The translations under genes and the position numbers were made by a program. Below the pieces are notes generated by a model that was not told the origin of the DNA, made no database searches, and worked only from the letters and a program-made list of their open reading frames with translations. A DNA stretch of 62,321 nt, counting the filler, from Platydemus manokwari (taxonomy: Eukaryota), in NCBI GenBank assembly GCA_037951405.1. It is 6 parts of 6 records of this genome, joined end to end, with 100 filler letters (N's around TTAATTAATTAA, not from the genome) between each part and the next. Parts side by side here need not be neighbours in the genome. Positions count along the whole stretch, not along the records: positions 34,133 to 42,860 come from JBBMOY011358982.1; 5 more parts are not named here. One strand, 5' to 3'. Positions 21,409-60,100 of this stretch are shown piece after piece (positions within the stretch are counted from its first letter, which is position 1; every line of letters begins with the position of its first letter).

Positions 21409-21498
21409 AACTTGGTATTAAAACTATGTTTTGTCACTATTAGACATCTTAACAAATGAGATATTAACTGAATTATACGAATAAATCAAACATAGCAG
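21409..21498. repeat. about 90-bp inverted repeat, left arm (partner 23346-23433)
   Basis: AACTTGGT...TGTTTTGTCACTATTAGACATCTTAA.AAATGAGATATTAACTGAATTATACGAATAAATCAAACATAGCAG is the near-perfect reverse complement of 23346-23433. Confidence 0.9.
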
Positions 21499-23345: not shown

Positions 23346-23433
23346 CTGCTATGTTTGATTTATTCGTATAATTCAGTTAATATCTCATTTTTTAAGATGT
23401 CTAATAGTGACAAAACAGTTTTGAAACCAAGTT
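23346..23433. repeat. inverted repeat, right arm
   Basis: Reverse complement of 21409-21498; begins exactly at the gap edge. Confidence 0.9.
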
Positions 23434-26419: not shown

Positions 26420-27030
26420 AAAAATCATCTTAAGTTTTTTGTAGAGTTTTCTTTTGAATGAATTTCTGTAAATCAATTTTGACTTCTTTTAAATATTTTA
26501 TTGTATCATTGGTTATTTTTTTAGTAGAGCTGTTTGAAGAAGAACTTGCTTTGATCACAATTTCAATAAATTGCTTGTACTTATGTTGAAACTTTCATCG
26601 ACCTGACCATTTTCTTCTTGACACAGTGAAATGATTTCGTCAGCATCAATGACTTCTTATCTTTGGATCAAATCCTCTTCAATCATAATTTTATCAAACT
26701 CATTCTTATGTACCTCAAGAACGGGATCTGATGACAAGTTTTCTTTAGCATAAGATCCGTGAAGACTTGAAATAATCACAACCTTTTTGAAACAATTTTG
26801 ATGGTTTCTTCTTTCACATCTTCCCAAGCTTCGTAGATTATCAATATTGCTTTCTTAAGATTAACAACAAAGGCTTTTGTTTGATCAAACGAGTTCAAGT
26901 TGCCAACTACTAACTTTTTTCTGTGATAATGCTTTAATTTTTTTATTTTATCTGCATCCTTTGGTTGAAGATGAGCAGTTGAGTTCTTCGGAAGCATTAT
27001 AAATTCAATGTGTGAAATTTATTCCAAATA
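26420..27030 (-). mobile_element. pogo/Tigger DDE_1 transposase 3' remnant
   Basis: IEFIMLPKNSTAHLQPKDADKIKKLKHYHRK...NLKKAILIIYEAWEDVKEETIK matches the consensus FLPPNTTS.LQP.D.GII..LK..YR...A...AW..V...TI. Confidence 0.85.
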
Positions 27031-28260
27031 ATTAAATATATTTTATTGTTCTGCATTGTCTTATTTGGTATTTTTATTTTAAATATTATTTGTATTATTC
27101 TGACTATTAATCTGCAGCAACAACCTTATCTGTTGGAGTCCAGACAAATACAAACTTAAATAATTATTTTTATTCGTCATATATTATTAATTTATTTTAA
27201 TTTCTGAGATTTAAAATATTTTAATTTTAGTTATTTCATTTCATTTATTTTCCATATTGCTAGTCTATTTTTGACTTTCAATTATTCTATTTCGCTTGTT
27301 TAATTATCTGTATTTGATTGTGATTATTTTTAATTGACCATTTGTTGATATTTAAATTTATTTTATTATTATTCTTGTTAATACCCATGTCATTAGTTTT
27401 TTTGATTGATATAATTTGATTTCGAGTTCTTGAAATGTTATGTACGATTTTAGTACATATTATTATATATTTACTATTTATACTTCATGACAATGCCGAA
27501 TTAAATACTTCAAAATAATTTCCTTAGTTAATTATTTTTTATTTATTAATTATATTTATTTTTAATATTTATATTTAGTGGAAAAAATATTAAACTCTAG
27601 ATATTCATTTAAAATAGCTCATCACTATTAAGTTTTCATTACATTTTAGACCAATGTATCAACATTTAAATTTTAACATTTTTCTAAAACATAGTAAAGT
27701 ATATTATACTTCATATTATACTTTGCATTCCTGCTAGTACGATCTTAAAGAATTTGAAGAGTTTTAATCATACTTGTAAAAAAGTCTGTGAACCCAATCT
27801 AACAAATAGGTTTCTGATCTTATTTATTAGATGAGTTATTTTAAGGCTTTTCGTCAAATTTTTAGCACACATAATTTGATTCTATAAAAAGTAGATTGAA
27901 CTTTAGAAACAATTTCTTTTCTTTCAATAAAATTTAACACTATTAGGTAACATCATGTTTATTTTTCTTTAATTCAGTACTTTTATAATTATATTGAAAA
28001 TACCGTTGGTGTTAATAATAATCGCAATGAAATATTACTTACAAGTTAAATTTTCACTGACCCTGGATTGTCTTATAACTTGGAACATTCATTTTAGTGG
28101 ATAACATTAATTAATTTTTATATATTTTTAATGTTTTGTTTGAATAATATAGTATAAAAATATAAGTTCAAAGAAAATTATCTTAATAATTTTTTTTATA
28201 TATTTTCTTTATTACTAATTTTTTATATTTAAATTATCAATTTAAATTTAAAATACTAAA

Positions 28261-29638
28261 ATGAATTCAACAGTAAAATTAAAAATAAAAAATGAATCCA
28301 ATTGTTTTTTAATAAATTTAATGTCGAATTGCACAATGAAAGAACTGATCGATGAAATATTAAAAGTCACTAATCCTGGCAATGAAGATATATCGTTATT
28401 ATCTGGATTTCCACCAAAACCTATTAATATCGATTTGGATTCGACTTTAACTGAAGTAATAAGATTTCAAAGTTATTCCTGATTTTATTAATATCATTCA
28501 GGCTAAAATATTCTCTGGTGATTGCATAATAATAAAATCCAGTTCGAATTCCGATATTAAACGACAGAAGCTAGAAACAAAACCAGAAAAATTAAACAAT
28601 AAAATATCGTATGGATTATATTTGTGTTTTGACATCTTTTCATTCGAATATACAAAAGGATAGATTCTTTGATCCAATCTCAACAAAACAGTGCCACATC
28701 AATTCTCATAAAGAAAACAATTCCAGCTGATAATTCTTGCCTCTTTGCTAGTGTTTATTACTGTCTCCATAATGGCAGTTTGGATGGTTTCGATTCTGAC
28801 AATGAGAGACAACTTGTTTGTGCCATGTTATTAAGCGAACCAAACAAGTTCGACAGTGCATTTCTGGAAGACAAAACACCCGAAGTTTATTGTGAATGGA
28901 TTATGAATGTAATGGTTTCCATGTAAACTGATTGGAATTTGATTTTGGATTTTCAGAAAGACCGCTGGGGTGGATCAATCGAATTGCATATATTGAGCAA
29001 TTTAAATTTGGTTGAAATCGATGTCGTGAACGTCAATACCGATCGAATCGATCGTTTTGGGGAGGATTGCAATTATTCTCACAAGATTTTGATTCTCTAT
29101 GATGGCATCCATTACGATTCATTGGCTTTGGAGGACGTGAATACTGGCGATTTGATCACCAAATATCCGGTTTCTGATGATGAGGTAGACGATGTTTGTG
29201 GTTTGATTGTGATATCGGCTTTGTTTATTGAACCGTGCCGTTATCCTAAAAATATTTGGTTGTCATGGAAACTCGAATCACCTAATCATATTCTCACCGC
29301 ATCCTAAGCACCCAGAAAAGAATCTCTTCTATCATATATTTTGTTATTGATTTTACCATTGTTTACACGTTTCCATAGAAACAGTCATTCGTCTGTATAT
29401 CGATTGTTATCTTTTATGAAAATTCGATGATGATTTTTCACCGAGGAATTATTTTTAGGTGATCGATAAAGCGAAACAATTGGCTAAAGAACTGAAATCC
29501 CAGAAACAATTCACCGATGTCAATACGTTCAAAATCCGATGTCACGATTGCAATTTGATCATGACCGGACAAGCGGCTGTCGTGAAGCATGCCAATTCCA
29601 CTGGCCATTCAAATTTCGGCGAAATAGAATCCAATTGA
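28261..29638 (+). CDS. YOD1: OTU1/YOD1 ubiquitin thioesterase, about 319 aa; join(28261..28455,28502..28608,28659..28908,28957..29184,29459..29638)
   Basis: UBX-like N-terminus (LLSGFPPKPI), catalytic IPADNSCLF, WGGSIEL, YDGIHYD, C-terminal C2H2 finger QFTDVNTFKIRCHDC...HANSTGHSNFGE. All four introns are GT-AG and phase-consistent (960 nt CDS). Confidence 0.95.
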
Positions 29639-34132: not shown

Positions 34133-34450
34133 ATTTGTTTAAATATTTGGATTTAAAATAGATTTGATTGTGTCTTGACTTTTTTTGTTTTGATTTTAGT
34201 TTGTGGTTTTTAAAATAGTAGCGGCTAACATGACGACCACGCATCTAGAATCGAGCCTGAAAAGATCAACGAATGTAAATTATAGAATAAGATTTTAGAG
34301 ATGATATAAAAGAAGATTTGAAAGAAGATATGAATTAGATATGATAAAGATGAGAAAGAAGTTATTAAAAGATTATTTATAACAGAGACAATTAACAAAA
34401 TCAAAAATTTTAAAGAAAAGGGGTTGTGAGATATTTTATATGAATTAAAC
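34133..34450. repeat. dispersed satellite-like repeat family, copy 4
   Basis: TGTGGTTTTTAAAATAGTAGCGGCTAACATGACGACCACGCATCTAGAATCGA ... AAAGAAAAGGGGTTGTGAGA, collinear with 12500-12852. Confidence 0.7.
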
Positions 34451-34464
34451 TACAATTTAATTCA

Positions 34465-36275
34465 AAACTTAATTCTGTTTCTTCGACACAAGTTGACCAG
34501 TAGTAATACAATTCAACTGTCTTTTGTTAATTACAGAAATAAATATCTTATATGGAGTGTCCATTAAGGTGATTAGGTGCAGAAACCAGACAAGGTGAGT
34601 TTCTTAAAGTGAGTCCTAAAACTCTTCCACTGATCAGGAAACTTGTCAAAATTTATAATATAATCATCATATTATGATAAGAATAAATATTTAGTACAGA
34701 GTCCGATGCATTCTGAAAGGCCGAGTCAATAACTTTTATTAATATGGGTGCAGTATTAAAAACATCTTGGTACGGAAACTGTATACCAAGGTCAGGTAAT
34801 GCGAAAGAACCGAATATGTGAAATGTTCAACAATATCTTCTACCATTGGCGTTGGGGTTGAGATAGAAGAAGGTAAAATACTTTTTAAAATTTTTTCTGG
34901 CAAATAATCATTTCCTTTCTGAAAATTGAAATCAGATTAGACATAATCCTTAGCAAGAGTCGACGGATAACGCAATTTTGTTCGAAATTTATCAAGTTAT
35001 AAATTAGAAATTGCTTTATGTCGATAGTCAAGAACACTTGGATTTGGTTCATCTAAGATCATACTTGCTAATCTTAATATTGGATGGGGAGTATTTGAAG
35101 TAATTGATTAGATCTACGATAAATTAAATCTTTCACAAAAGAATTAATAGTGTTGCGAAAGTTCAAATTAGAAATTTCTGTTATTATAATAATCAATCGT
35201 GTACCTTATATAACATAAACCACAGTCATAAGAAGCGAATTGAAGAGGAATATTTGTAAGATAACTTTTATTAATAGAAAAAGGAAATTGGACCATTAAT
35301 GTGTTCCAACAACCGATTTAAGTTGTCCCTAAAGTTATGCATTTTATCTCTAAGCTCAAGCCTAGCAGGATTCCACAGATTATCGGCCCACTTAGTGTCA
35401 TTCTCTTTTAATGTCATCTTTGCCTATTTGTATTTTGTTGAATATTTCATCGAAAAATAATGCATTTTCGAATGAGGAGAATTTATCATTATTATTGTGA
35501 CATAATTAATGATTCTTAAAGTTCATCAAATTTCTATCAAAATCTCAGAAACAAGTCATGATTTTGTCACAAATATCTTTGACCTTATGAACGGGGAATA
35601 GTGTTTCTTAATTGAGGTAACATTAGTGTTACTAGGAGTTGCAAAGTATTTCTTTGTTGAACACATAGAAAGTGCAACTTTAGCAGAAATATTTGCCTTT
35701 AATATAATATCGATTCTCTCTTTTGTTACTTTAAAGGGAGCTATCTGAGGGCACTTATCCAAATGTACGGCTCTGGTTCCACTAAGGAGTTTATAGTACA
35801 AAAAAGATACATTAATAACATGAGAGTCAGTTATAGATGGAAATGATAAAATCTTTCTGCCTAATCAGAGTCAATCGCGATAATATCGAAGGCAATAGCT
35901 ATCATGGAATCATTTACTGTCATATCAGTAAGCATAACTTCATCTATATTTACTGCAGAATGTTTAGTATTTATATCAGTAAACGGAACTAGAGCGCCAG
36001 TGTTGGAATCTATAACTTCATCTCTCAATGAGTCAAGTAAGGAGTCAAAGAGTTTGATACAAAAATCACCTAAATCAGTAGCGTTATTTATGTGGATGAT
36101 TTCTTTAAGTGGTATAGTAATATGATTTCTCAAGATTTATATGTCCAATCCGAATATGATACATATACTTGACCCAGTCTTTAAACAAGTTGAAACAAGT
36201 ACAATAATCACAAGTGCGAGTTTTCAACATAATGAAACTCTATCTGATATCAAAATCTAACTCAGAGTGTGCGAA
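34465..36275 (-). mobile_element. inverted 5' half of a NeSL/R5-type non-LTR retrotransposon (C2H2 finger, Ulp1-like protease, RT domains 0-2)
   Basis: Minus strand, in order: CDYCTCFNLFKDWVKYMYHIRIGH (about 36141-36212); MLTDMTVND; KMHYFSM; IPLQFASYDCGL (Cys codon 35222-35224); FDKFPDQWKSFRT; LITLMDTPYKIFISVINKRQLNCITTGQLVSKKQ (about 34475-34590, cf. RPITL.DT.YKIF.S.LN.RL......LIS..QKG). Confidence 0.75.
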
Positions 36276-36279
36276 TTCA

Positions 36280-37730
36280 GCACAACAATCAAGAGGAGTT
36301 AAACAAGGTTGTCCTATTTCGATGTTTGCTTTAGCAATAAATCCAGTACTTGAAGCAATTGAAACTTTACAAATTTCTAGTTTCTTAATTAGAATTAGTT
36401 CTGTTAAGGTTTTAGCTTACGCTGATGATATTGCTTTGATAGCTAATAATACTCCTGATCTTCAAAAACTTATAGATAAAGTTGTTGAAATAACTGAATG
36501 GGTTGGTTTACAATACCATCCAGAGAAATGTGCCTTTATAAGCTTACCACACAAAAGCACTGATGATGCAATATCTATTAATACTGTAAATATTAAAAGA
36601 ATTCTATATGTATCTTGGTGCTTCGTTAATGATAAAAATGATCTATCTCCTTACAAAGTTTTGAATGAACTTGTAATTGATCTTGATAAAATGGTTGATT
36701 CTGATTTATGGGATCGACAAAAAGCTTTAATCTTAGAATTTTCTTGCACTCTAGACTTGTTTACGCGTTTTGAAGTAGAGAAATTAAAATTTCTGTGTTA
36801 GTAGAGAAAAATAGTAAAATAAAGGCTTAGATGAAGCAATTACTTCATTTACTAAAATCAAGCTGAAGTTTTTTATCTTTATACATCGACAGTAAATGGT
36901 GGTGCTGGATTGATTGATGAATACCACGCCCAACGCATTATTCAAGCATTTCGTCTTTTTATCTCAAATTGGTCACTGACAAAAAAATTATATCTGATTC
37001 ACTTTGCTTTGTTTCTTCTACTAGACTTTGCATCGCAAATTGGTGAAAGCCTTGAATGGATCAATGCTAAACAATCTATAGAAAACTCTGCTTCTAAAAA
37101 GACTTCGTGGGTACTTGTTATCAATGCTGTGAAATATTTTCAAAATACTCAAAAGATAATCTTGATTTTTGAATTGTCAACCAAATATGTTCCCTATTAC
37201 CGGATAGCAGGGAGCGTATCGATTTAATGGTGACTGATGTAAACAAGAAAAAGATTTTTCTTGTAGACATGAAGTGCCCCATAGATACACTGTAAAACTT
37301 TGAGAAGTCGGACAAAAATAATATAATTCACTATACCGATTTCAGGAATGACTTGGCCGAATTGAAATCAGATTTCAATATTGAGCTTTTTACTTGTATA
37401 ATTGGCTCACTCGGTACAGTTCCGTCCTAAACAGATTCAATTTTGGCGAAGATTGGCGTGTCAAAGAATAAAATCCGAAACCTGGTCAAAGATTGCGTAA
37501 TTTCAAATATTAAACATTCAGCAAAAATTTGGCACTTTCACTCGACCAGTGCTTTGATCGATTTTATCTAATCACAAAACCAAACAATCTAACCAATGAA
37601 AGGCTGAGATGAGTGTCCCACAGTGTCAGCTGAAACATTAGCAAAGAGAAAACCCAAAGAAGAATACAAAAAGAAGAGAAATATTGACAAAGCACAAGTT
37701 AACAAAATTGATAATTGCCGCTACTAATAA
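36280..37730 (+). mobile_element. 3' half of a NeSL/R5-type non-LTR retrotransposon (RT domains 4-7, thumb, restriction-like endonuclease, 3' UTR), pseudogenised
   Basis: RGVKQGCPIS, VLAYADDIALIA, GLQYHPEKCA, YLYTSTVNGGAGL, and the RLE DLMVTDVNKKKIFLVDMKCP...IIGSLGTVP...KIGVSK...DCVISNIKHSAKIWHFH ending about 37570. The CCHC knuckle is not visible. Confidence 0.9.
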
Positions 37731-37890
37731 GGAACATGGAAAATATTAAAAAAACTTTTTCGTAATAATGCTGCAAGTAGTAGTTTTAAAAATACCATCA
37801 AAATGAGTAATTTTATTAATACCATTTACAGCTAGAAATTCGTTAAATTCTTTTGTAAAAATAAAAAAATAAAAATTGGGGGAATCTTCT

Positions 37891-38574
37891 TCAAACTTGT
37901 TTGAGGTGAAGTATCAAAGATATTTCTTCTCCACCAAAATCTATTAAATCACAATCTTGATCTGTTATTTTAAAAGTAATTTCACTAACACATTTAGTAT
38001 ATATTGGAAAATAAACTACTTGTTTTACTTCTTTATTATAGAAATAAACTAGGCAAACACTATTGGTTATAAAGCTATAAATAATATTTGACTTTATCAG
38101 CTCGTATTCGGTATTTGTGCTTTTCTGGATATATAACTTCCAACAGCTATTGCAAATTCAAAATTTATTAACATAAGCTCAAAAATATTTATTTCATTTC
38201 TTGATAAATGATTTCCAATAGTGTAAATTTTATTATTTTCATTAGGTTTAATTTTTACATTATATACTGGGTTTTCATTACTATCAACTTGAGTTATTCC
38301 ATTGATTTAATATACGCCCATACTTTGTTGTACGCGTTTATTTATATCCAGAATTTCTCTAGCACCTTTTGGAATTTTATATAATTTATTTTCATATTCA
38401 AAATAATTATTATTATCATTAATATTATAAACAGAATTTTAAACTGTCTTACTTATCTAATTTTAAAGGTACTGGAAATCTAAATTTCCATTCGGTTTTT
38501 GTACTACTAGATATTATTAACGTGCTATATTTTTTAGAAATAATGTTAATAAACACACTTAATTTCTCTTTCAT
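37891..38574 (-). pseudogene. Polinton minor capsid (penton) protein remnant
   Basis: FRFPVPLKLD; NSVYNINDNNN; YKIPKGAREILDIN (cf. IP.GSYEI.DIN); AVGSY; C-terminus VVYFPIYTKCVSEITFKITDQDCDLIDFGGEEISLILHLKQV* (cf. I.DQ.G.LIDFRGE.I...LHLK). Confidence 0.85.
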
Positions 38575-38739
38575 TTAAAATATCACTTTTTTGACTTATT
38601 ACTTAGTATGACTATTGCTCATATAAAAGAAACCAGTCTTCGTCTGACTTTCGGACCTCATTGGTACTTTGTTCCCAAAGAAGGCGAAGGGACTCAGACA
38701 TTGTGTGACCCTTGGACGTCGTTCGATAAAAAAAAGTGC

Positions 38740-39170
38740 CTCGCCTTTTATTAGTTTAAAAATGGAAATTTTATATATTTAGTACTTTTTATAAAATCAA
38801 ACATGGCTCTACCTTCAGAGGGAGTTAAAAATACCGACTGCTTTCTTTCTTTTTGATTTTTGTTTGCGCTAATTCTTCTTTCACTTTCTCAGTCTCCGAA
38901 CCAGCTTTTTTAGCTTGTTTTGCTTGATTTACTGCAGTTGTAACTCTTCCAGCAACTCCTGCTCCACCACGTAAACCCACTATAATTCTGGTATTGCAGA
39001 TAATAATGGAAAAACTCCGCTCGACTTTTGTATCTTATATTCTACATTATCTTAAATGTTTTTTTAATTTTTTACGTATTTCTTTAGTTATTTTATTGTT
39101 TCTCCCTCATGATAAATTGATTTAGATTTACCCGTCTTAAATATTTGTTTTAAAAGTTTTTCTTCATTTA
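38740..39170 (-). pseudogene. pX-like / core-protein precursor remnant
   Basis: SSGVFPLLSAIP[frameshift]IVGLRGGAGVAGRVTTAVNQAKQAKKA...GIFLTPSEG resembles the GGFLPLL...GG..G...AVN.AK...G.GL.L.P motif of adintovirus/Polinton X proteins. Confidence 0.7.
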
Positions 39171-39299
39171 TTTTTTAAAATTAAATATATCATTAAATGA
39201 AATATAAATGTTCATAATTTTGTTTAAATTAAATATAAAATTTAATAAATAAATATTATCAACATTTAATTCTTAAATGAAATAGAAATTAAATATTTC

Positions 39300-40552
39300 T
39301 TAAATAATTATTAAATAATCTACATCTTGTATTGTAAACATCTTCTCACCTTTAATTAATATTTCAACAGATTTTTCTTCAAATATGCAACAATAAGTTT
39401 TGCATTTCAAATCTGATGATTTATCAATATCAATCGATATTGTACATCCATTAATTAATAATTTTTCATCCTGGGCTTTAACATCGAAACAAATTATTTA
39501 GAAAAGTTCTGAAAATCTAACATATTCAATTGACGGTATTTTTTGAATTATTCAAATAAATTGAGATAAGCATCATAAGGAGCATCTTGATTATTTGCTG
39601 TGATATCAAATTGCATTTTATTTGCTGGATATTTACTGCCATTTAATCTAACTTTTAATGATTTTATATATTTATCATTTCCAATATTTGAAATGAATTT
39701 TGAATTATTTTTAATAAAACTAATTTCAGGATCTTTAAACCCAATTATAATATATATCGGTCTATTCTTTAATAAAGCTACTTGCCATGTATAAGTTTGT
39801 GACTCTGGAATATCGATAAGATTTGAAAGTCTATTTAAATAATTAACTTGAATATGTTTATCAATTGGTATTCTTTTTTGTATTCAAGTTCGTTCTTTGA
39901 ATTTAGAGATAATTTGGACATACAAAAACCAAATGAATTGAGAGTTAATTTTCTTTCTCGTTTTGTTCCGTGAAATATTTTCTTATCATATATTTTTTCT
40001 GTTTAAGGTTAATTTAAAAATCATCAAAAATAATAGTCTATTATAGTTTTCCAAAAATCCAAATATGAGTTTTAATATAAATCGTCCAGTAAACCTGTTT
40101 TTTTTTAATTTTAAAAGGCTTTTCTTCTTCTGAATTCCTCATCGTTTTTAATTGGATCTTCTTTAGTTTTATCTGAAATCCATAATGTCAACTCTCCAGT
40201 TATTTCATCAGAATGATCTAATAATTTAAAATTAAACATATTAGCTGCTTCTCAAACACTTTTGATATTTTCAATTTCATAGGTTCCTAATGTTAATCTC
40301 AAAAAATTAAATAAATTAAGAAAAATTATTCTCTAAAGTTACATTATGGTTTTCTTCTACGCCAGTAGCATTTTTGTCTTTTTAATTCAATCTTAGAAAA
40401 CTATTACAAAGTGATATCAAAGGCGTTATTTAAATTTATTGCTGTGGTTGATGGTGGGTTAATAATATATAAATCTTCTTTATTAATTTCATTTTTAAAT
40501 TTAAAATAATTTGCATCTAATTTGTTCAAAAATTTTTAATATAAAAATTCAT
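39300..40552 (-). pseudogene. Polinton major capsid protein (PY, double jelly-roll) remnant
   Basis: Across frameshifts: NVTLENNF; LRLTLGTYEIENIK; FILKLIFGFLENYNRLLF..FKLTLNR (cf. PL..LFGF.EDY.K...EL.L.R); YTWQVALLKNRPIYIIIGFK; VRLNGSKYPANKMQFD...PYDAY; IICFDVKAQDEK...TYCCIFEE. Confidence 0.85.
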
Positions 40553-40689
40553 AATTACATATGAACGAAATTCAAAAGGCCATACGAAGTCTGAGTTCCT
40601 TCTCTTCAATCAAAATACTTTCTAATTATGTTGTCAAGAATTTCTTTGTTAAAAATACTTTTTGAGTATTTTGTTAATTTTGTTTTTAA

Positions 40690-41480
40690 ATATATATCCT
40701 AATTTTTATAATTTTATTAGAATACTATTTATAGAATTATAAACATTATTATTTCCTCCTTGTTTAGCAACTAATAATTTTCGTAATTCATAAAATAATA
40801 CTATTGGATTTGCCGGAGGTGACGAGCACTTTACTCGACTTTATAACGGGTTTAATCCATTCCTTTTCTTCGACATGCTAAACTTATTTTCTATCATTCT
40901 CGGTGGGTAGGAACTGCGTACATCTGAAGTTGGTAAAATTTGTTAGATTTGTTTTTTCCAAAGTTTTAAAATAGGATAGAGTGTATTATTTAATTTTATA
41001 TGCATCTTTATTCCCCAAAATAAAGTTGTATAAATTATCCGTAATCTTAAAATTGATCCCATCTCCAGTATATGTAATATAATTGTTACCATTCAATTTT
41101 GTGATCAAAAATTGTGTAAAATAAATCATGAAAATTTTACAATGTTTGTCATTCATTTCTTTTGTTTCTAATGTTGGAAAAATAGAAGCTGCAGATAGGG
41201 CTTTTTGATTTAGTGTAAATATTTCCGGTTCAATATAACGCAGTCTTACATCAGTTTCTTTTATATAATTCATTTTTTCAAAATTTTTCCCATCAACAGC
41301 TTTCAATTCTTTATTGCCTGTTTCCATTGCTAGTTGTTGTTTTCCTGCAATAGCTTTTAATTTTTCATTTTCCTCCTCAATTGCTAATTTTTTGATTTCT
41401 TGATTTTGTACATCGATTGCTCATAGAGGTTTAGAAAATTCTGTAAGACCTCGGCTTAACATAACGCCATTTAATAAAGG
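40690..41480 (-). pseudogene. conserved Polinton/adintovirus accessory gene remnant (coiled-coil N-terminus)
   Basis: EFSKPL, coiled coil, INFKITDNLYNFI, and C-terminal PANPIVLFYELRKLLVAKQGGNNNVYNSI (cf. P.DPNEL..RL.LL.A...AGN....NEI); includes ORF 40986..41327. Confidence 0.7.
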
Positions 41481-41659
41481 TCATTTTTATTATTTTTAAA
41501 TTGAGAAAATTTGTTTAAATAAATCAATTTCTCCTAAAATTCAAAAATAAAATATTCTAATAATTTTTGATATTTTGATAGGTTTTGATAGTTATCTATA
41601 TTATGAAAGATTTACCCGATCTAATTTATCTTGTAAACTAAAAAGAACAATATATATAT

Positions 41660-42045
41660 AGCTAATATTTTGGCCTTTTCGGAACCAAACGAAGAGATGA
41701 TTTTAGATACCGACGCTTGTTTTGAAACGATTGGCAGCGTTTTAAGACAGTTGGAAGACAATGGAAAATAGGGAGTAATAGCCTATGCTTCTAGAATACT
41801 TGACAGTCATGAAAAAAGAGGAAGGAGCTTTTAGCAATTCACGATATTACTATGCATTTTTACCATTATATAATGGGGGAAAAAGGGACTCACAAAGCTT
41901 TGATACGCATAAAGAAATCTAACAAACTGATTAGTCCTCAGTTTCAAACATGGTTTGTAAACTTATCCGGATTCAATTTAAAATTTCAATATCCGAAGGG
42001 ATCAGACATGAAAATGCGAACGGATTCTCAAGGATAGGAAGACAT
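41660..42045 (+). mobile_element. Ty3/Gypsy RNase H fragment nested in the Polinton
   Basis: ILAFSEPNEEMILDTDACFETIGSVLRQ...VIAYASRILDSHEK..RKELLAIH...HFYHY...HKAL...PQFQTW..NLSGFN. Confidence 0.85.
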
Positions 42046-42199
42046 CGACTATCCGCAGCGAGTTTCCTAAGTTTGTCATGATAATAATATGAAAAAACCA
42101 TTCAGAGACTAAAAGTAGGTGGTTATGAAGAGTTTAATCATTTCGAATAATTGCGAAGAATATAGACAAAACTTAAATTGAAAGATATTAGTATTTACC

Positions 42200-42533
42200 A
42201 GGAACAAATCTTCAATAAAATTAACAAAATTATGGTGAAATTATAAATAATTATAATGAAACTGAAAAATTATATATACCCGCAATTATAAAACAAAATC
42301 ACCACCCTGTAAATAAAATTGAGTTTTTAGCAATGCAACGTGTTGTTGATTATTTTCCAAAAGATTTACAACATAGATATGCTGGTGATGCTGAAATGAT
42401 ACATCAAATAGATAACATTCCTAATCCAAAATTCAGAGGCCCATTAGATAGATTTTTAATTAAAAGTATTATGAAAGGGAAAATTATGGTTGGACAGGGT
42501 CTACCACACTTAGTAAAAAGATTTAAAAATTAA
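42200..42533 (+). pseudogene. Polinton/adintovirus PLA2-like (PLA2X) gene remnant
   Basis: HPVNKIEFLAMQRVVDYFPKDLQHRYAGDAEMIHQIDNIPNPKFRGPLDRFLIKSIMKGKIMVGQGL (cf. PIN.LD.A...HDI.Y...DL..RH.AD..M...LD.I.NP..RE...K..M..K...G.G); the catalytic HD is absent. Confidence 0.7.
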
Positions 42534-42541
42534 GAAAATTT

Positions 42542-42760
42542 ATGAATATCTGGATTACAATGATGAAACTAAAGACGATTTTCTTTTACGAGATGAAGAT
42601 CAATTAGCTGAAGAATTACATTATGAACAAAAAAAAGTTAAGAAATTTTGAAAAGTTTAAATATTTTTTAACGAAAATAAACATAATGCTGATTTACTTA
42701 AAATGCCTAAAAAATCTACAGAAAGACCTATATATCTATATATTGGTTGTTAATTATTTT
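42542..42760 (+). pseudogene. Polinton retroviral-like integrase, N-terminal remnant
   Basis: DQLAEELHYEQKKVKKF*KV...HNADLLKMPK matches the Polinton integrase start LAEELHKP.R..F..R.V.....WQADL..M. Confidence 0.7.
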
Positions 42761-42860
42761 GTTGGGTCTACCGACTGTAGAGAGCAACAATCCTCGTAAT
42801 AACCTGACTCCAAAATCAAAACAAAGTTGCACACTAAGTTATATTTCTATAACACTATAC

Positions 42861-42960
42861 NNNNNNNNNNNNNNNNNNNNNNNNNNNNNNNNNNNNNNNN
42901 NNNNTTAATTAATTAANNNNNNNNNNNNNNNNNNNNNNNNNNNNNNNNNNNNNNNNNNNN
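42861..42960. other. assembly gap linker
   Basis: N44-TTAATTAATTAA-N44. Confidence 0.98.
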
Positions 42961-45900
42961 AACATAAAGATCTAACACAAGCAAAGAAGATATAATAAAT
43001 CAGTTTGATCAATTTCAAATAATCGCAAATTATGAAATAGTATTCATCAATTTATTAAAACAAATAGAGAATATGATATAGAATAAAATTCATTCAATAT
43101 AATATATTAATTTTTTCAAAAAGCAATTTTAATAACTAAATGTAAGTTGAAAACCGTGAGAAAAATTATTTTTAAACAGCAGAATGAAAACATGTTTAAT
43201 TTATGTAAGACATTTCTCTTTGTTCGAGATCTAAGAAATATATGTAAGCAAAATTTATTAATATTAACATACACAATACTTTTAAAATTAGATCTTGAAC
43301 AATCAAGATTTGATAAGTTTTAAGTATTTGATAAATTTTAATATATATTTGAAAATTCAAGTCTACATATAATACAACTAAATTAAAACTTTGTTTATGA
43401 AGGAAAAAAATGTTAAGATATATTTTAAAAAATAACAAACCACATAACTCAGTAAGATAATATATCTTCAATGTGTCAGTTTATTGGTACAAATTCGTAA
43501 TTCTTAGACGGCATCTTGCAGACAAAATATTAACAATGCTTTGGGAGTTATTTCTTATTGAATTAATGGTTTTAAAGAAATGTGTGACGATTGTTTGTTT
43601 TTGTTGATCTACGTTTTAACAGTGAATGTGAAATTTTAGAAGTCGAAGATATATAAAGCATTAATGATTTCCAGATTACTAACCACCAGTTTTTTGGATT
43701 AATTTTTAAACTTAGCAATGACAAGATTATCATTATAGTTTATTTGTTCTTCGTTTCGATTTTGAGAAACCCAACATATCACAATAACGTTTAACCAATT
43801 GATAGATTTTCTAAAATCATTTAATAAACGAGATAAATATTTTCTCTGTTAAAATTTCTAAGAATAACTATAAGTGATTCTGCTTGACTAAAAGAAGTAA
43901 TTCCAACTTGGTGCCATTAGTCTTATTTTAAAGCACTTGATAGCAAATATGTTTGAGACACAGACTAGTTCATTGATAAATTAGAAAGATAATAAAGATA
44001 ACATCAAAGGTAACATCTGTTTTGATAACTGTCTAATTATGATATCGAAAAACTGACCTAAATCAAATCATTCTCTGATAATGTAATAGTCAAATGTTTT
44101 GTTTTATTAATACAATGCCGTTTAATATAATAATATATGTTCCAAGAATTTAAATTTAAAATTGAAACCACAAAACAAAATAATTTTTAAAATCAAAAAT
44201 AAATTTGATATTTCTGATGGTTTTTCATATTCTCAAAGGTTTTCTTTTCATAATAAAATGAAATTTCTCAAATATCAAAGGTTTAACGAATTAAACATTT
44301 AATGGGTACTTTTGGAGATCTTTATTCTTGCCAAACGAGATATAAGTATTTTTTAAAATAAATTTTAATTTATTTTGTAAAAGAATCACAATTCTGATAT
44401 TGTTCTTGTCGAAATCACAATTTTGTCAATCGTGTTACAAATAGCGAATGTAACCGTTTCGAAGTTTTCTATTTTAAGAACTTATTCCTTTAAATTCAAT
44501 ATATTTTTTCAAATGAGTCAAGAAAAAAATTCGAACTTCTTTGGTTCACATAATTGCTGGATCTACATGCTGTCGAACGTAACTACTCGATTATTTCTCT
44601 GACTCCAACAACTGATATGTATACTCACTAGGATTTAATATATTACACTTTAAAAGTTTGTTCGATAATATCTCATAAGGGTCCAGCCCCTGATAACAGC
44701 TCGGATGAAAACTTTGATCTTGTCCGTCCACTAAGCTGAGTTAATGACCGAATAAAAACAATCTCAAATACTTTTACAATACTCTACCGATCCTGGAACT
44801 GCAATATAATATACTATAGAAGTAAAATATAACGTACCTGCCCAAGATATATTATGTATGTATATTTTATTATTTCCAGTATCCAAATTATTTTATTATT
44901 GTATAAATAGAATTTATGTATCGTATTATATTTAAATAGTTATTTCCGTTTATGTTTGTCCTTCTATATTTTGTTTATTGTATGGTCTTTATTTTATTTA
45001 TGTTCTAATTAAGTAAAATTATATTTCGGGATTTAAATTTCATGGACTTCACAATATTCGTGATGTTTTTAAAACATGCTTTATGAAGTTATGGTTATAT
45101 AGCCATAATGATATTATTGAAATCAATTAATCTCTGTTACGATACGAAAACAGCTACACCAACGATCTTTGTGAACAACCAATTCTCTCAAAATTAATAA
45201 ATTGTTTAACAATTTTTTATGATAAAATCTTGTAATATAAATATTATCTACTACTACTGATGTTAAAAGTCTACTAGACCAAATTAACAAAAATAATAAT
45301 ATTCATATACCAAGACAACAGGCCAAGTATATTCTGGTAATCACACAAAGCTTCTCTTCCACCGTCAATAACGACATCGCACTCTCAGTCAATAAACATT
45401 GAAATTAACAATTATTTGAGGCAATTTTTATAAATGGACGTTGTTTCTGCTTTATAAATCTAATTGTGCTTTTCCGTGAGTCTTGAATACAGATAAAATA
45501 AAATGTGAAGCACCATAAAGTATTCATGTGATGTTAGCTCTTTCTCTATGTCAATCTCGACGCTATAAACAAAAACCGGCATGATATCAGCGATATATAT
45601 CTCATAGTATTGATGATTAACTAATAATTTCTTGTAAGATGATCATTCAAGTACCAAAGAACTCACTGACTCTGACTTGAAGAAATTGAAATGAGCACTT
45701 GTGATAAATAAATAAACCCATTTATATCGGTAAAGAAAGTGTCACTAGTAACACTTAAATTAATTCAATAAATTGAATTGACTTTCTGATTCACAGAGCT
45801 TTATCGAAAATGTACTAATCATCGATATTCGTGTACTAACAAAAACTGATTTTTAACTTTAGAGATTTTCACCTGTACTTGGTTTTTTTTATAAAAGTTG

Positions 45901-46796: not shown

Positions 46797-47047
46797 TTAA
46801 ATATCCTCAGTCACCAATTATTTAACTAAATTTGTAAAATTTCAGACTTGTTCCAGTAGTTTATCTTCACCTGAACAACAATATAGAGATAATTTCCTTT
46901 TCCAATAACCAATAAATTCTTAGGTCGAAATATTGATTCATTAAAATTACAATATTGTCAATAAATACCAAGATAACATTTCATATCCATATTTATATAT
47001 TTATTAAAATTAAATATATAAATATATAAATTATCTAATTTCTCTAC

Positions 47048-50963
<3,916 letters not shown>

Positions 50964-52229
50964 ATTTTGAGTAACAATTAGATTTCACTATTTAATAATG
51001 ATAATAATAATACAAATTAATAATAATTGTATAAATTAGAACTATCATATTTAGAATATTAGATTTATTAATGATGCATTTAAACAAACGAAGCATATTT
51101 AGCTTTATTTTGAGCAATGGACAATCTTTTTTGAACTTATAAATACTTGTAGATTCATTATAAAGAGATTAGAACTTAATTTGGAATCTAAAATTTCATT
51201 AGAAAGCCGAATGTTATTTGTATTGTATCTTAATTTAACTCAGTAGCAGAATAATAACAATTCGTCGTAGGACAAACAAATAGACATTTACTGAATAACA
51301 TAATAACAATAATAACATTCATTTAGAATAAAAATAACATTTTCATGATCCGGTGAGAGCAAGTCTTTTAAAGTCTATTGAAACACTTCCACCAATTGAA
51401 ATTGTTCGAAGTATTGATGGAATTGATGAGTCGATGGATCGATAATGGTATGAATAGGATGTGGCAAACAGTAATGGGCAAAGATCGTCTCAACAGTCCC
51501 CCCAATTGGAATTTTTCGAAGTTCGGTTGGATTTGATTAATTGAAGAATCGTAGCTTGATGGAGTTGAGTCTGAATGTGAAGTCCTATGAAATGTTATCA
51601 AATAATTTAATATAAAAATGGTTAAACATAAGGGTTGATGTTAAATGACAAGAGTTAGTTGACGTAATTATTAATTTTGTTGAAGTAGTGGATTTAATTT
51701 GATTATATAATTAATTGGGTTGATATTTAAGTTTTGTAACCAGTTTAAGTTCATTTATTTCCTTATGAAGTTTTTAATTTTCTGAAATTTTGATTTTGTC
51801 AAAGACGATCATGGTGTTTAGTCGAGTTTATTTCAATTATTCTATTAAATATTCTATTTAATTTCTCTATTAATTTTTCTTTTTATCGATTCTATTACCT
51901 TTTATTTAGATCTAGCAGAGCCTGAAAATAATTGCGAGGCAGATTTTTAGGAGATATTATTTACGTCGATACGGGAAGGAAAATCAGATAATATCATGTA
52001 ACCAAAATTATATTTTGTTGATGGCCGATGTAAAGGAAATTAATTATCATTTTATTATTTTTAAATTGGTAATAAATTTTTATTTTCAAATTAGTTAGAA
52101 GACAACATTAAAGGTCTAAAAAAGATATAATATTATTTTAAATAAGTAAAAAGATAACTAGTTTGCATCAATATTTTATTCTAATTCAAAAATACACCAT
52201 TTCTTTTTATTATTAAAACAAATCTTATT

Positions 52230-53150
52230 TTTTATCTAACTTCCATCTCCAATTGTTTTTGAGATCCTTTTTAGCCATTCAATTCTTCGAGGTTTTGGCT
52301 GTCTCTGAAAATCAAGAATGTGGACTTAAAAATTTCAAAATTTTGTGTGGACCGTCATATCGATTTCCATTCTTCTTTATCTTATGTGGTTCTTTCTTTA
52401 CAAACTCTTCCCGTGGAATCATAATCTCTTTAGTTCATCCAGTATATACCTTTCGTTTATCACAAATATCACAATTTCGTACTTCATGTTCGATGCTTCG
52501 TGACATATTTGGCCAGAAGTTAATTTTTCGAATATAATCGACCAATTTCTTATTACCAATATGGCACAACTCTTCATGAAGATATCTCATAAGTTTCTGC
52601 AAATAAACCTCTGGTACAACAATTAGCTTCTTTCCATTCTCATTATACACCACCATATCTTAAAACAATTCATATTTCTCCTAACTGTTAAAATATTTGC
52701 TTTTCTTGACAGCTGAATTGAGTTCTGCTTCTGTTTTCCTTGACCATATTCCAATGGAACCAACGACAGTATCTTCTTGTTGAATCTTTCTTAGTTCGTC
52801 ATTATTTACAATTAAATACTCGATAACATTAATAAAGCGAGATTTTTGTTGACCTTCTTTAGTATCTTGGTGCTGAGTTAAGCATTTTGAACAAAATGCT
52901 TCACCTATCCTAGAGAGTTCATACGCATTTCCATTATCTGATCCTTTCCTATATTGGAGTTCAAAATTAAATCCGGATAAGTTCGCAAACCATGTTTGAA
53001 ACTGAGGGCATATCGGTTTGTTGTTTCCTTCATGTATATCAAGGCTTTGTGATCGGTGCGAGTCACGAATTTCTTTACCAACAAATAATGTCTAAAATAC
53101 ATAGTAAACTCGTGGATTGCCAAAAGCACTTTCCTCGTGACGCATATCAT
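52230..53150 (-). mobile_element. Ty3/Gypsy pol remnant (RNase H, integrase Zn domain, C-terminus; integrase core deleted)
   Basis: CVTRKVLLAIHEF..YFRHYL..KKFVTRTDHKAL; PQFQTW; HEELCHIG...FWPNMSRSIEHEVRNCDIC; RYDGPHKI. Confidence 0.9.
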
Positions 53151-53307
53151 GATGCTATAAATATCTTAATTTTTCCTATTAAATTTAAAGACTTATTTAT
53201 TTAATAAATTTTGTATTGGTTATTTATTCAAAAACTAAATTTTTTCTTATATATAATTATTAATATAAAAGTTCTTTCAAATGAAGTTATTGTTAATATT
53301 AATTTTA

Positions 53308-54114: not shown

Positions 54115-57100
54115 TTAGAACAAGCTCAACAAATTGGCCGTTGTTGCGTAATCCACGGGTTTCTTTCCATTCTAAATAATAGGATATAATGATAAATATG
54201 ATTCGCCCATGTAGATCTGTAAATGAAAATGTACTTTATCCACAAGATTGACATTCGCTCGAAGTTCGATGAGTAATTTGGTACAATCATAAAATCCTTC
54301 AATAACAGACCAATGCAAAGGTGTCAAACCATTCCCATCTAATTCATCAACACTAACACCTGCTTCTAGGAGAGCCGGAATTATATTATGTCTTCCTCGA
54401 ATGGCTGCACAATGGATGGGTTGAATACCTTTATGGCCCTCAAAAGTTTCAGCCCAATGAATATCCGCGCCGCACTAACAAATAACAGTATAATTATATT
54501 ATTATTCAAACCCCACGTACCTTAACCAATAATTTTACAATTGTCAAATGACCGAATCCACAGGCTTGGTTTAATGGGCTAATATCATAGCTAGTTTTCT
54601 TGGTATAGGAATCGGTGATTTGACCTTTTAAGTTAGGGTTGCACTTACATCGTAAAAGCCAGAATGAAAGCTCATTGTGTCCTTAAAATTTTAAAGAAAA
54701 ATTAAAAGAATGATTTTCTGCCTTTCGAAAGGATGTGTTGTCAATATTTTATATCGATGTTAAGGATGCAGCCACAATTTTAAAACAAAAAGTATTTATA
54801 TTGATTTTACTAGTTATATATCTTTTATAAATCTCTTTTTATTATTATCATTAGATAAAGAATATTTCTTCACTATATTATTGAGTATCAGACCTCACCC
54901 CGATCACAAATAATAATCTAACAGATAAAATTTTTTCAAATTTAGCGAAAAATAGACTAAAAGATAAATATAGGATTAATAAAAATACAAAAATAGAATG
55001 AATAGCTAAAATAGAAAGACGAAACAAAAAATAACATAATTAATATAGAATAAATATAAAAATACAAGAAGTAAATAAAAAAAAACGATAGCAATATAAA
55101 TAATCGTTAAAAAATTTGTCAAAAAGCTAATACAAAAAATTGTATATCGAAAGAGTAATTGACTCAAAATTGTTGAAAATCATGTTAATCGGCCAATAAT
55201 CATTCAAAGCAAAATACTTGAATTTCCACAAATATTATCCGTAAATCACAAGTTACTAGAATACCTTGCGTGGTATTTTAGTAATTAATAAGTAGAGAAG
55301 AAAAATTTCATATTTCACGATTAGTGAAGGTAGTAACCTACACTATTTCATTATTTAGTCACATTTTTCAAGTAATTTTTATATTGTTAAAATGAAATCT
55401 TATTGTAAATTTTTATGTCGTCTTTAATTTTAATGGATTTAATCCAGTCCAATCATACTATTAATTAATTATTAAATTCAGCGAAAAATCATTTATAACC
55501 ACGAGGGATTGCTACCATTAATAGGTCCAATGCTCAGCAAGCTAATTAGCGACCAGGACTCTAGCGGGACGAGCACAGACACTTAAAATCAATACTTATA
55601 TCACATTAAAACCCTATATTAAAGATAAAAATAATTACCACCCGTTTATTGCCTCATTTAAATTCAATTTATTATTTCATATTTGTATCATTATTGTAGT
55701 GACTTGTAATACCAATTATATTTTATTTCTATTGTATTCATTATTGATTTAATTGGGACCACATTGAATTACTTTTGATTTTCCAATAATGTTGGTTAAT
55801 TCTGATCTATATTATATCAACTCTAAACTTCTATAAACCACAACAATATATTAATAAGATATTTATAATTTTAAAACGTCAGTGTCGTTATTTTTCAATG
55901 AAAACTCAATCTAGAAATGTTAATTATGTTAGTTTATATTAGTTATATCAGCTTCTTAAAATAACGTTAATCTGGAATATTTATTTTTTTTAGAAAATGA
56001 TTTGAACTCATTTTCTGCTAGTAATTAACTCGGTTTTCGCAAACAAATTCGTCGTATTTTAAACATATTCAAATACAGTGGAATGAAATCAATATTGGTT
56101 ATCAGTATTCTGCTATAAACAGACATATTCAACAGTGTTGAAAACTATAGAATGAATTGATAATAAGAAAAAGAAAACCGAAATCGAGTTAATATGTAAA
56201 CCTAATTACCTTTTTCAGCAGTTAAGTGTAGGCATGAAATACCAGTGCTGAGTGGAATATTAAGTGAACTATTGGCAATACCAATTAGATAAACAATAGC
56301 TTTTGTAAATCCTCTTTGGCAAGTTATATGAAGGGGAGTTGCACCAAGATGGTTCTCTTGAATGTCAGAGTTAGCACCACATTTAATTAGATATTTCATA
56401 ACATCTTCTCGGTTTTCCGAAGTTGCTATATATAGAGCCGTGAGATTGTCTCGATTTACACGGCTAAATACAGCATCAATCTGAGATCCATGTTCAAGAA
56501 GTAGTTTTACAGCTCTCTACAAAAACATAAAATTGATTTAAAATATTTTTAAAATTCATTAATGATTATTTTAATACAAAATAATAATATTAATAATTTA
56601 ATTTCTCCAATCTTTATTGATTTTTAAAAACTTACAAAAAATTTTTGAATTTTACAATAAAACAATATGCGACCGAATCTCAAACAATGAATAAGAGAAA
56701 AATATCTAATTTTATAATTAAAAAATTTGTAAACAACGTTTATTTTATTAAAGTATTCGATATTTGACTAAAAGATCTACAAGCAAAATTGAAGGATCTT
56801 TGTATATCTTTTAATGAATGATTCAATAAATGACCAGAAGCATGTAGATTTAAAAAAATTTTCGATTTTAAATAAAATACCAAAATATATTTTACAGCTT
56901 CAATAATTTGATAAATTACCTTATGACCTTTTTCAGCTGCCATGTGTATTGGAAGCATTTTCGATCGATTTCCATCAGTGGCCTCTGCATTAACATCAGC
57001 ACCAGCCTATCGGAAGTACAGAAAATAATTACCGATCTCAATTATAAATATAAAATAAAGATAGTAATAGAAAGGAAATATGCTAGCATTTCCTACTTCG

Positions 57101-60100
57101 GGCATACGAAATACGATATAATCGAATACAATTATAAGAAACGGTAGAATGATTTGATCAAGCAATCGACAATCCCAACAATTAATCAATTATTGACTCG
57201 TTTCATAGTTATTTCTATTCAACAGTATCAGATAGGCACACCAATGTACTGGTACACTATTCACTCACTTTAATGTAGTTATTAATTATATATGATTTAC
57301 TTACCGTATTTTGAGGGCTATAAGGTGCACCTTAACTATGGGTTGACTGATATATTAAATTAAAAATGTATAGCAAGATTTAATGCTCTTCATCATCCAA
57401 AATATAACATTTACTTATATTAACATCATCACCATCTTTTTTTTTTAATATTCCAACCTTAATAAATTCTAAAAATCTGTTTTAATGTGCGTCTTATAGT
57501 CCGAAAAATACGGTATGTAAATCATGAAATCATTTTTATTTTGAAAGACAGCTTAGAGGAAAATAAAATTAAAAATAAACTCCAACCTCTAAGAGCATCT
57601 GCATAATATCAATGCATCCAGCATTTGCAGCATAATGCAGGCATGTGAGACCACAATCTTCAACTGCAGATACAGAAACACCCCAATCAAAGAATAATTG
57701 CACAATTCCCAAATGACCGCTCTCGGTTGCCAAATGAACTGGTAAAATGCCATCTCTGTCTCCAGTAATCATGCGAGCAAATGGATCTGCTCCATGCTCC
57801 AATAATAATTGAACTATTTCTACACTTCCCACCTATTAGATAAAATAGATATAATCGTGAATTATAATTTGAAAGTTTTGATTGCCCAGTAGTTCTATTT
57901 ATCAAATATAAAAGCATTTTGAGTTAACCTCCCAAAATATCTATGAGAACAGCATAAAAATTGTTGTTTAAAGTCCATTTCATTTTATGTTGAAATCAAA
58001 CTTCCAATATTGTTTCTTTGAAAATAATTGATATCATTGATTTAAAGCCTCACTATTTGATAATGTAACAAACTAAAAAACTGATAATTTTACCACGATG
58101 TTTCTCGACGACTTACAATTAAAACACAAATCGAGTCATATACGAACGAACGTTTTTCAAATTAAATCAAACCTGAGCAGCTATATGTAGACAAGTAGCA
58201 TTGCGACTGCGACTGACAATGCATTTACCACTGACATCAGCACCGGCCTTCAGTACAGTTTCAACACCGACAACGTTTTTCTTGCTAACCAATGTCAATA
58301 GGGCATTAAACGAATCGCTACGACTACTATCGATATTAACACTTGCTGACTGTTGCTGGGTTAAATATTTCACAGTGGTTATCAAATCATTGAGAGCAGC
58401 TAAATGTAATGGGCTGACCCGTTCAACGGATTTAAGAATCATTGTAGAATTGACACTACTGCCAAATTGAATTAAAATCTAAAATTTCAGAAAATTTAAC
58501 TCCATTTTTGATTACAATAAAATTTTCACCTCAACTATCTCATCTAATCCATTTTGAACGGCGACATGAATTGGAAGAACTTGTTCACCCTGGCCTAAAC
58601 AACTTCTAATCTGAAGATCGACTCCAGCATAGATCAATTCTTTGGCAATTATGATATTTTTGTTACGCAATGCCACATGCAAAGCTGTCTCATAATTGGG
58701 CGAGCTTATGAAGTTCAGATTAGAACCATATCTGAAATTTACAAAATTGTCGATTAAAAACTTTTGTAAATTTTGTAAAAGTATTAAAATCGAAACAAAG
58801 AAATCCAAATGCACATAAATAAAACAATAAAACGCGCAATAATTCAGACAATTCACTACATTATTTTATATCACTTGTATATAACATTTCTAGGTACGAT
58901 ATGCGAAATTCTTAGTAACAAGAAGAAAATTACCACTTAGATAATAATAAAAATTGTATTCACAGAGCTACCTATCTACGAATAAATTGCTCCAGTGCGA
59001 AACTTCAGCGAAAAAGTCAGTAAATTTCCCGATTGTCTTAATATTTATAAAACAATATATTTTAAACTGTTACAATTTTGGCTTGAACCCCTTTCAAACA
59101 AATCATAATTAAATTTTAAAATAAATAAACAATTAGCTTAAAACCATGGCTACGGAAACCGTAGACCTAAACATCTTCAGGTCTCTACACTCATTGGCTG
59201 GAAAAATTCTTTAAAATCTGTTCTATCTTATTAGAATCACAAACAATAAAATCATCATTATAAAAATTAATTATCGTAAATCATGGTTATTTGTTCAGTG
59301 CATAATTTGATTCATTGTATCTTACAATATTATTTTATTGATTTTATCATTTATTTATTTATAAATAAGTGTTATAGTTTTATAAAACGTCGATTTTGGA
59401 ATCAGGTAACCAATCAAAAGCATTCTCAATATAATTTTATTATAATATTTTTTTACAAATCGTGCATTTACATTTTCGACTTAATCTCTACCCGTCACAA
59501 ATAACACTAAGTTGGAATATAACATTGACCTCTGAAAAATTAGACAATAATGAAAAAATGAAGAACATTTTTATATGTTTACTGATTCACTTTTGAATGA
59601 ATTAGTTTCTCGATATAAAGTCTTTTGTTAATCGAGGGTTTTTTTTGAAAACACCACCTTATTCGGTAATATATCGAATAATTTGTTAATAAAATGAAAC
59701 TTATGATTGATTCACAAGACTGTCACAAAAGTAGAGATTCAATTGAAACGTGAAATGTTTTGCTATCTTTTGTAAAATTCTTATATATTCGTTGAAAACA
59801 AATACTTCATATTCGTTAAGCTTCACTGAAACATCTAAAATTCTTCCCTAAAACACGGTCAATTCATGGATAGCAGTAATTGGTAAGCATAAAGTTCTAA
59901 GATTTTACAACAACTAAACTAAAAACTTTAATAAAAATGATACTGAGGCTCTGAGACTTAAATTTCATAAGTTTTACCATATTAAATTTATTTAAAACCT
60001 AAATTGAAATTTTGGATGACATCAATAATACAGATGTAATATGATTTCCGCATTTACTATGTGGTAATTGAACTGAAGTAGTTTGTTAATATTTACTCTT

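Follow-up and report, generated by a model that had tools for sequence, protein, structure and literature searches.

Gene remnants at the locus

The analysed DNA, hereafter the window, is a stretch of 62,321 nucleotides (nt) from the assembly of Platydemus manokwari (GCA_037951405.1), and its positions 37776–42790 hold a virus-like element whose genes are all broken. Remnants of an accessory gene, a major capsid protein (MCP) gene, a pX-like gene and a minor capsid protein (mCP) gene lie on the minus strand, and a phospholipase A2 (PLA2)-like domain followed by the start of an rve integrase lies on the plus strand (Table 1). An earlier note on this DNA had read these six pieces as an integrated and now dead virus of Polinton/adintovirus type, capsid genes included. 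Our frameshift-aware alignments agree with that note on the place and strand of each piece and support the identification, as all pieces match one metagenome locus, L003, and natural relatives align with scores of 129–657 versus 26–45 for the controls. Judged from its sequence, the stretch appears to descend from a Maverick-Polinton, full membership not being demonstrable on a piece that ends inside the element. We consider it very likely that a Maverick/Polinton-type DNA virus became fixed in what is likely an animal genome and left this broken remnant, and that its PLA2-like domain and integrase were likely one fused protein. The note had also stated that two small fragments of the element appear among the open reading frames (ORFs); few fragments do appear, although the stop-to-stop ORF list holds three open pieces of at least 100 aa within the Polinton stretch.

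Table 1. Features of the Polinton-type stretch, its flanks and the spacers of the window
Feature	Position	Strand	Details
Decayed non-long-terminal-repeat (non-LTR) retrotransposon, outside the Polinton element, on its left	36208–37570	+	RVT_1, E 1e-13
Possible left end, AGTAGTAG	37776–37783	+	begins AGTAGT, in keeping with the (AGT)2 end motif of the literature; 108 nt past the stop of the mCP gene
Minor capsid (penton-like) pseudogene	37891–38574	−	2 frameshifts, 2 stops; alignment 38574–37894
pX-like core-protein pseudogene	38784–39162	−	2 frameshifts, 3 stops
Major capsid (double jelly roll) pseudogene	39300–40535	−	about 6 frameshifts, 4–5 stops; alignment 40535–39327
Accessory pseudogene, conserved	40652–41462	−	1 frameshift, 3 stops; alignment 41408–40652; upper bound is a candidate ATG
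LTR-retrotransposon RNase H remnant inside the element	41643–42038	+	RT_RNaseH_2, E 1e-10; RT_RNaseH, E 5e-8
PLA2-like domain and rve integrase start	42288–42744	+	one frame change near 42520–42545, 2–3 stops
PLA2-like part	42288–42506	+	frameshift-aware alignment
Integrase start	42589–42744	+	frameshift-aware alignment
Artificial spacer	42861–42960	.	closes the 8728-nt piece 34133–42860 that carries the Polinton remnant
Spacers, 100 nt each	starts 12853, 23246, 34033, 42861, 53308		44 N + 12 nt + 44 N, all-frame-stop word

Relatives of the element

The 111-aa open MCP piece at 39551–39883 was used as a HMMER query over 1.84 billion proteins and gave 36 matches at E ≤ 0.001, eight of them at 1e-10 (best E 5e-18). 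When 24 of the matches were compared with Pfam, 16 carried PF21738 and six had no family; the remaining two, P0022 and P0036, proved to be unrelated repeat proteins and were left out of the alignments. A profile search with the MCP relatives yielded 43 proteins, 39 with PF21738. A word-index search with the same 111-aa piece gave none among 127 candidates, and neither the viral contig collection (six scans) nor the genome contig collection gave a locus. Ten loci of relatives came from a metagenome scan. The near relatives are all unnamed metagenome proteins.

Two of these loci show the surroundings of the genes. L003 (6.7 kb) encodes the minor capsid, the accessory protein, an A32 ATPase (PF04665), the pX-like protein, the MCP, a 201-aa protein and a 441-aa protein that combines PF08398 and PF00665, and all five gene remnants of the window match this one locus, itself with an ATPase (tblastn). 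In L001 (9.2 kb), minor capsid and MCP genes of the same families are joined to a gene for a protein-primed DNA polymerase (pPolB, PF03175) of 1403 aa or longer, at 3–4211 (−) on the same contig, in which we presume N-terminal zinc fingers and an internal endonuclease VII-like motif. A 152-aa gene of L001 has no Pfam match; by motif it resembles an adenain-like cysteine protease. Between the MCP and the fused integrase of L003, at 4586–5191 (+), the 201-aa gene likewise has no Pfam match; its product has cysteine pairs and an HNH-like end. Across L001–L005 the order and strand of the mCP, pX, MCP, accessory and integrase genes differ in each locus, and the proteins are 40–60% alike.

Natural relatives were aligned to the window DNA by a frameshift-aware local method, with three shuffled and one reversed version of each stretch as controls. 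Scores were 599–657 for the MCP, 183–212 for the mCP, 129 for the pX-like gene, 139–163 for the accessory gene and 220–228 for PLA2/integrase, and 26–45 for the shuffled or reversed DNA of all stretches. Every match of an L003 or L001 gene in the window falls inside 37894–42711. Pfam searches of the window frames, with stops read as X, gave nothing for the mCP, pX, accessory, PLA2-like or integrase pieces.

Capsid, pX-like and accessory genes

The MCP remnant is made of colinear pieces in three frames that together cover residues 3–410 of a 415-aa relative at 42% identity. Its 111-aa piece matches PF21738 weakly (E 0.008), and a protein-atlas comparison, which serves as a lead only, placed it at 0.97 to PF21738 clusters with recognition under 2300. 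The predicted fold of an intact relative, P0038, has a predicted local distance difference test (pLDDT) score of 86 and a predicted template modelling (pTM) score of 0.87. This model matches the capsids of Sputnik, PBCV-1, an iridovirus and mavirus (template modelling scores 0.57–0.65, E about 1e-15) at 7–11% identity, and entries of MELD and adintoviruses at 10–13% identity. By this model the MCP family is a double jelly roll; the model is of the relative, to which the window gene is tied by sequence alone. In an MCP tree built on unnamed sequences only, with no named Polinton references (45 of 46 rows, 112 columns; L010 dropped for lack of a match), the window gene joins the short fragments P0001 and P0002 (support 99/94), and no relative is closer than about 60% (63% over 62 aa).

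The mCP remnant matches L003 (E 1e-13) and L001 (E 4e-12) by tblastn at 35–48% identity per piece, and in both loci the homologue adjoins the MCP or ATPase gene. The model of its relative, built from two sequences, is of low confidence (pLDDT 37), and its top Foldseek matches mix pentons with unrelated rows, among them the MELD penton (E 4e-4) and the mavirus minor capsid (E 8.5e-4). With a poor model and mixed matches, the remnant is labelled minor capsid on the strength of its homology, size and place. The capsid module of the earlier note is supported: the MCP matches PF21738 proteins and the double-jelly-roll model, and the mCP matches the neighbour of the ATPase and MCP genes in relatives.

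Three colinear pieces of the pX-like remnant match a 188-aa L003 gene (E 4e-5; control scores for this gene 27–39). That gene has a weak Adeno_PX match below the cut-off (E 9e-4), and the window piece itself has none. The accessory remnant matches a 281-aa gene of L003 (E 2e-9) and a 253-aa gene of L005 (E 2e-8) at 31–34% over 170–235 aa, and in L005, as in the window, the gene lies directly upstream of the MCP. The L003 and L005 genes gave no Pfam family above the cut-off, and the window piece gave no protein-atlas match. The accessory protein was likely virion-associated.

A PLA2-like domain and an integrase, probably fused

The PLA2-like part of the window matches L003 by tblastn (E 4e-8). 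The front of the domain is absent and its catalytic His-Asp pair is not kept. The integrase comprises the N-terminal part up to the first acidic motif and breaks off ahead of the core, close to where the piece ends, versus a full PF00665 in L003; a profile of the relatives' integrases matches retroviral integrase structures. In L003, PF08398 and PF00665 stand in a single 441-aa frame, and in L002 only one stop interrupts the same two domains. We surveyed the spread of this arrangement with the fused L003 protein as query and a length window of 242–772 aa, in which 967 of 8000 candidates reached E ≤ 0.001. Among the best 120 of these 967 relatives, 100 combined PLA2 with rve, 19 had rve only and one had PLA2 only; 35 also carried a chromodomain. 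The 100 fused proteins form 47 groups at 70% identity, and 99 of them keep His-Asp-x-x-Tyr, whereas each of the three acid motifs of the integrase is kept in 94–99.

Matches to window positions 42000–42900 were found for 78 of the 120. Against a profile of all 120, 42288–42506 corresponds to columns 59–132 (E 1.5e-13) and 42589–42720 to columns 133–176 (E 2.6e-6), that is, to consecutive columns. The linker in the window resembles that of P0099, which aligns right through it, and about 117 codons separate the position of the catalytic pair from the first Asp of the integrase, compared with 79–151 in relatives. No Met opens the integrase frame of the window before the first conserved block. At the joint, Gly-Gly or Gly-x-Gly occurs in 89 of 98 relatives versus 1.2% of 1190 core windows, and a strict cleavage pattern, which we take to be that of the adenovirus protease, occurs in 11 of 98 relatives and in the window copy.

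Given the one-frame L003 protein and the 100 of 120 relatives with both domains, the PLA2-like domain and the integrase probably belonged to one fused gene, and for this copy we regard a single protein as quite likely. The PLA2-like and integrase parts had previously been read as two genes in succession, a reading not supported by the single frame of L003 and the consecutive profile columns, which fit one fused protein.

Insertions, ends and genes missing from the piece

The element is split between the accessory gene and the PLA2-like domain by an RNase H remnant, overlooked in the earlier note, that belongs to an LTR retrotransposon, presumably of Gypsy type. A second RNase H remnant lies beside host genes at 52684–53165 (−) and is 75% alike over 234 nt (52904–53136).

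Position 37776 may be the left end of the element. The search for terminal inverted repeats of the (AGT)2 or (AG)3 type and a 6-bp target duplication found AGTAGT there, and within the window it found neither a partner repeat nor a duplication, the right end lying beyond the piece. (AGT)2 is the commonest end motif of vertebrate Mavericks (PMC8097293). Eight-mers of the AGTAGTAG type occur four times in the window versus 0.49 expected. A reversed AGTAGTAG at 45248–45258 was rejected as the right end; its similarity stops at 9 nt, its flanks differ and it lies across a spacer.

The earlier note had suggested that pPolB and the other genes may lie in or beyond a gap at 42861. That gap is a stock spacer, and the pPolB, ATPase, protease-like and 201-aa proteins of the relatives match nothing in the 62-kb window at E ≤ 0.5. 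The genes for pPolB and the ATPase are absent from the window, where the piece ends inside the element, and relatives carry both (PF03175 in L001, PF04665 in L003).

Decay of the copy and alternative explanations

Several observations weigh against this interpretation as a whole or in part. The retrotransposon piece stands between the capsid genes and the PLA2/integrase part, and these two halves need not share one insertion. The window is without pPolB, ATPase, protease, integrase core, repeat pair and target duplication, and with a relative's model at such low pLDDT the fold of the mCP remnant is not established. The frame changes at the joint, so the fusion is not readable directly in the window copy; the fused query and the length limits of the survey favour fusions, and 100 of 120 therefore shows spread, not frequency. 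The strict protease pattern is found at few joints, and the joint glycines are inherited rather than independent, which makes the protease-cut signal only a lead. Of 42 conserved MCP columns the window gene keeps 33, in line with intact relatives at a similar distance (25–34 of 42), so the column test shows no loss of constraint.

This retention of MCP positions would fit an element that is intact or nearly so and whose breaks stem from mistakes in a poor draft assembly, as would the fragmentation of the assembly into pieces of 9–13 kb and the finding that one sequencing run only, perhaps its own source, carries the stretch (0.74 of words; no RNA run was listed). We regard this as very improbable. 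Each gene remnant has 1–6 frameshifts and 2–5 stops; in the five genes together, frame changes number about 12 and in-frame stops at least 14; two of the 12 frame changes fall in base runs versus 13%, without enrichment; and long host frames of 386, 225 and 196 aa near the element are open. The window MCP has a long end branch in the tree (0.64, against 0.14 for one sister and 0.29 for the other), the catalytic pair of the PLA2 is gone and a retrotransposon piece lies inside. The frame changes and stops, the lack of base-run enrichment, the open host frames and the long branch together favour decay over error, and we hold it highly likely that the copy decayed neutrally and that the breaks are as read in the assembly. 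A non-standard genetic code was rejected, as table 1 leaves the host frames open and the element's genes are also frameshifted. The stretch could also be a mosaic in which two Polinton remnants meet at the retrotransposon piece, or part of a protist or fungal virus that was assembled together with host DNA; the foreign 400-nt piece at the join, the variable gene order among relatives, their exclusively metagenomic origin and the existence of lipase-bearing protist and fungal groups (10.64898/2026.06.19.733378) would suit this. Such an origin is nevertheless quite unlikely: capsid half and integrase half both match L003 and are decayed to a similar degree, and of the two decayed retroelements on the piece, one recurs next to host genes elsewhere in the window.

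As for the joint, the layout may have been the ordinary adintovirus type, with PLA2-like domain and integrase as two adjacent, separate genes. The two parts do lie in different frames, the stop at 42533 closes the PLA2-like frame, and the insect Mavericks described in PMC5803895 and PMC8502044 have CAP/PLA2 separate from INT. Yet the other genes here are no less broken, the nearest proteins are themselves fusions, linker included, the integrase frame lacks a start codon before its first conserved block, and pX stands on the other strand as its own gene, unlike in PLA2X. Separate genes are accordingly an unlikely arrangement, and a fused gene in a decayed Polinton remains our preferred reading.

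Comparison with known systems

The likeness of the element is to the Maverick-Polintons (Polintoviricetes) and, among them, to the lipase-bearing group 2/Alpha adintoviruses, with a PF21738 MCP, a minor capsid, a pX-like gene, PF08398 and rve in common; relatives add pPolB and the A32 ATPase. The PLA2X of Alpha adintoviruses, with their Mayetiola-class virion module, joins PLA2 to pX (PMC8502044), whereas in the window PLA2 runs into integrase and pX is separate on the opposite strand, so that the PLA2X mark is lacking. In the Sf Maverick, the PLA2 of CAP is free of integrase (PMC5803895), unlike in the window and its relatives. Named adintovirus and MELD capsids resemble this capsid family in fold only, at the identities given above. 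The closest comparison is with L001–L005 and P0001–P0200, which share all five genes at 31–56% identity, with the fusion in L003, its one-stop version in L002 and the accessory gene before the MCP in L005; they differ in gene order, and most are open whereas the window copy is dead. Gosseviruses/VC35, protist Polintoviricetes compared here by description, carry a protease and a phospholipase in about half (10.64898/2026.06.19.733378), with protist hosts, unlike here. The PLA2 of parvovirus VP1 shares PF08398 and, in the relatives, the His-Asp pair; it is tethered to a capsid protein there and to an integrase here.

In the open-access literature, excluding Repbase, InterPro, figures and subscription papers, we found no description of a PLA2-integrase fusion. 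The words 'fused' and 'fusion' are absent from the available text of PMC8502044, and the available portions of PMC3671162, PMC4642659, PMC11296320, PMC11071308, PMC8097293, 10.1101/2023.08.22.554363 and PMC11131425 do not mention such a fusion.

Proposed mechanism and significance

Capsid assembly, packaging by the ATPase, replication by pPolB and rve insertion are established for Polintoviricetes (PMC11071308, 10.64898/2026.06.19.733378), phospholipase is common in Polinton group 2, and no Polinton particles have been observed to date (10.64898/2026.06.19.733378). The live ancestor would likely have formed an icosahedral particle from the double-jelly-roll major capsid and the penton-like minor capsid, with its DNA condensed by the pX-like protein. 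It was likely replicated by a protein-primed polymerase and packaged by an A32 ATPase, both known in relatives and not in the window, and inserted by the rve integrase. The fused protein may have been carried in the particle, in line with the published view of Polinton lipases as virion-borne aids to entry (PMC4642659, PMC8502044); its PLA2-like part would help to breach the endosome, as in parvoviruses, the fusion would bring the integrase in with the genome, and a virus protease would perhaps free the integrase at the glycine-rich joint. Packaging and cleavage of the fused protein are a tentative proposal. Doubtful, too, is the wider idea of a large undescribed Polinton lineage whose virion-borne PLA2-integrase opens the endosome, delivers the integrase and is released by protease at the glycine joint. 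After insertion, constraint would have been lost, the LTR-retrotransposon piece gained, and frameshifts and stops built up. The locus is today dead DNA and makes no particle.

Decayed Polintons are common in animal genomes, and one more changes nothing by itself; 96% of vertebrate Maverick copies are decayed (PMC8097293). The likely fused lineage is the interesting part. Polintons could integrate out of an incoming particle or solely from inside the cell, and the wider idea, if true, would give direct genomic evidence for the former route. An entry enzyme tied to an integrase, with intact catalytic motifs in about 100 diverse proteins, links both steps in one gene. The fusion is a simple marker for the lineage and is open to ordinary biochemical test. 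In addition, an integrated copy in what is likely an animal host is now seen for a capsid family that otherwise came, in this analysis, from unnamed metagenome contigs only.

Make-up of the window and neighbouring genes

The window has a G+C content of 27.9% and consists of 9–13-kb pieces strung together by five identical 100-nt spacers. These are artificial joins, and neighbourhood across them is therefore no evidence of adjacency. The region gave no match among phage records. In the non-LTR retrotransposon to the left of the element we presume a C-terminal restriction-like endonuclease motif.

Among the other genes, an intact two-exon TRAF-like gene at 18761–20149 (+) encodes RING, zf-TRAF, coiled-coil and MATH regions around a GT-AG intron of about 190 nt, as read from the sequence. 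OTU1-like deubiquitinase exons lie at 28252–29307 (+), with 4bos as a better structure match than 3by4, and UDP-glucose pyrophosphorylase exons lie at 47034–50984 (−), with 4r7p/3r2w ahead of 2i5k; we take 4r7p/3r2w and 4bos to be human and 2i5k and 3by4 to be yeast structures. The 386-aa open frame at 6002–7162 (−) was without a Pfam family in our test; its N-terminal motif and single C2H2 finger presumably resemble those of NET/elbow zinc-finger proteins. From these likenesses the host is likely an animal. Positions 54172–62118 hold an ankyrin-repeat gene or genes with many exons, and 26779–27018 (−) a DDE_1 transposase remnant. A 150-nt unit is repeated in three tandem copies, 82–96% alike, at 11551–12030, and 21427–21498 has an inverted 72-nt copy, 99% alike, at 23346–23417, one arm lying right at the start of a piece.

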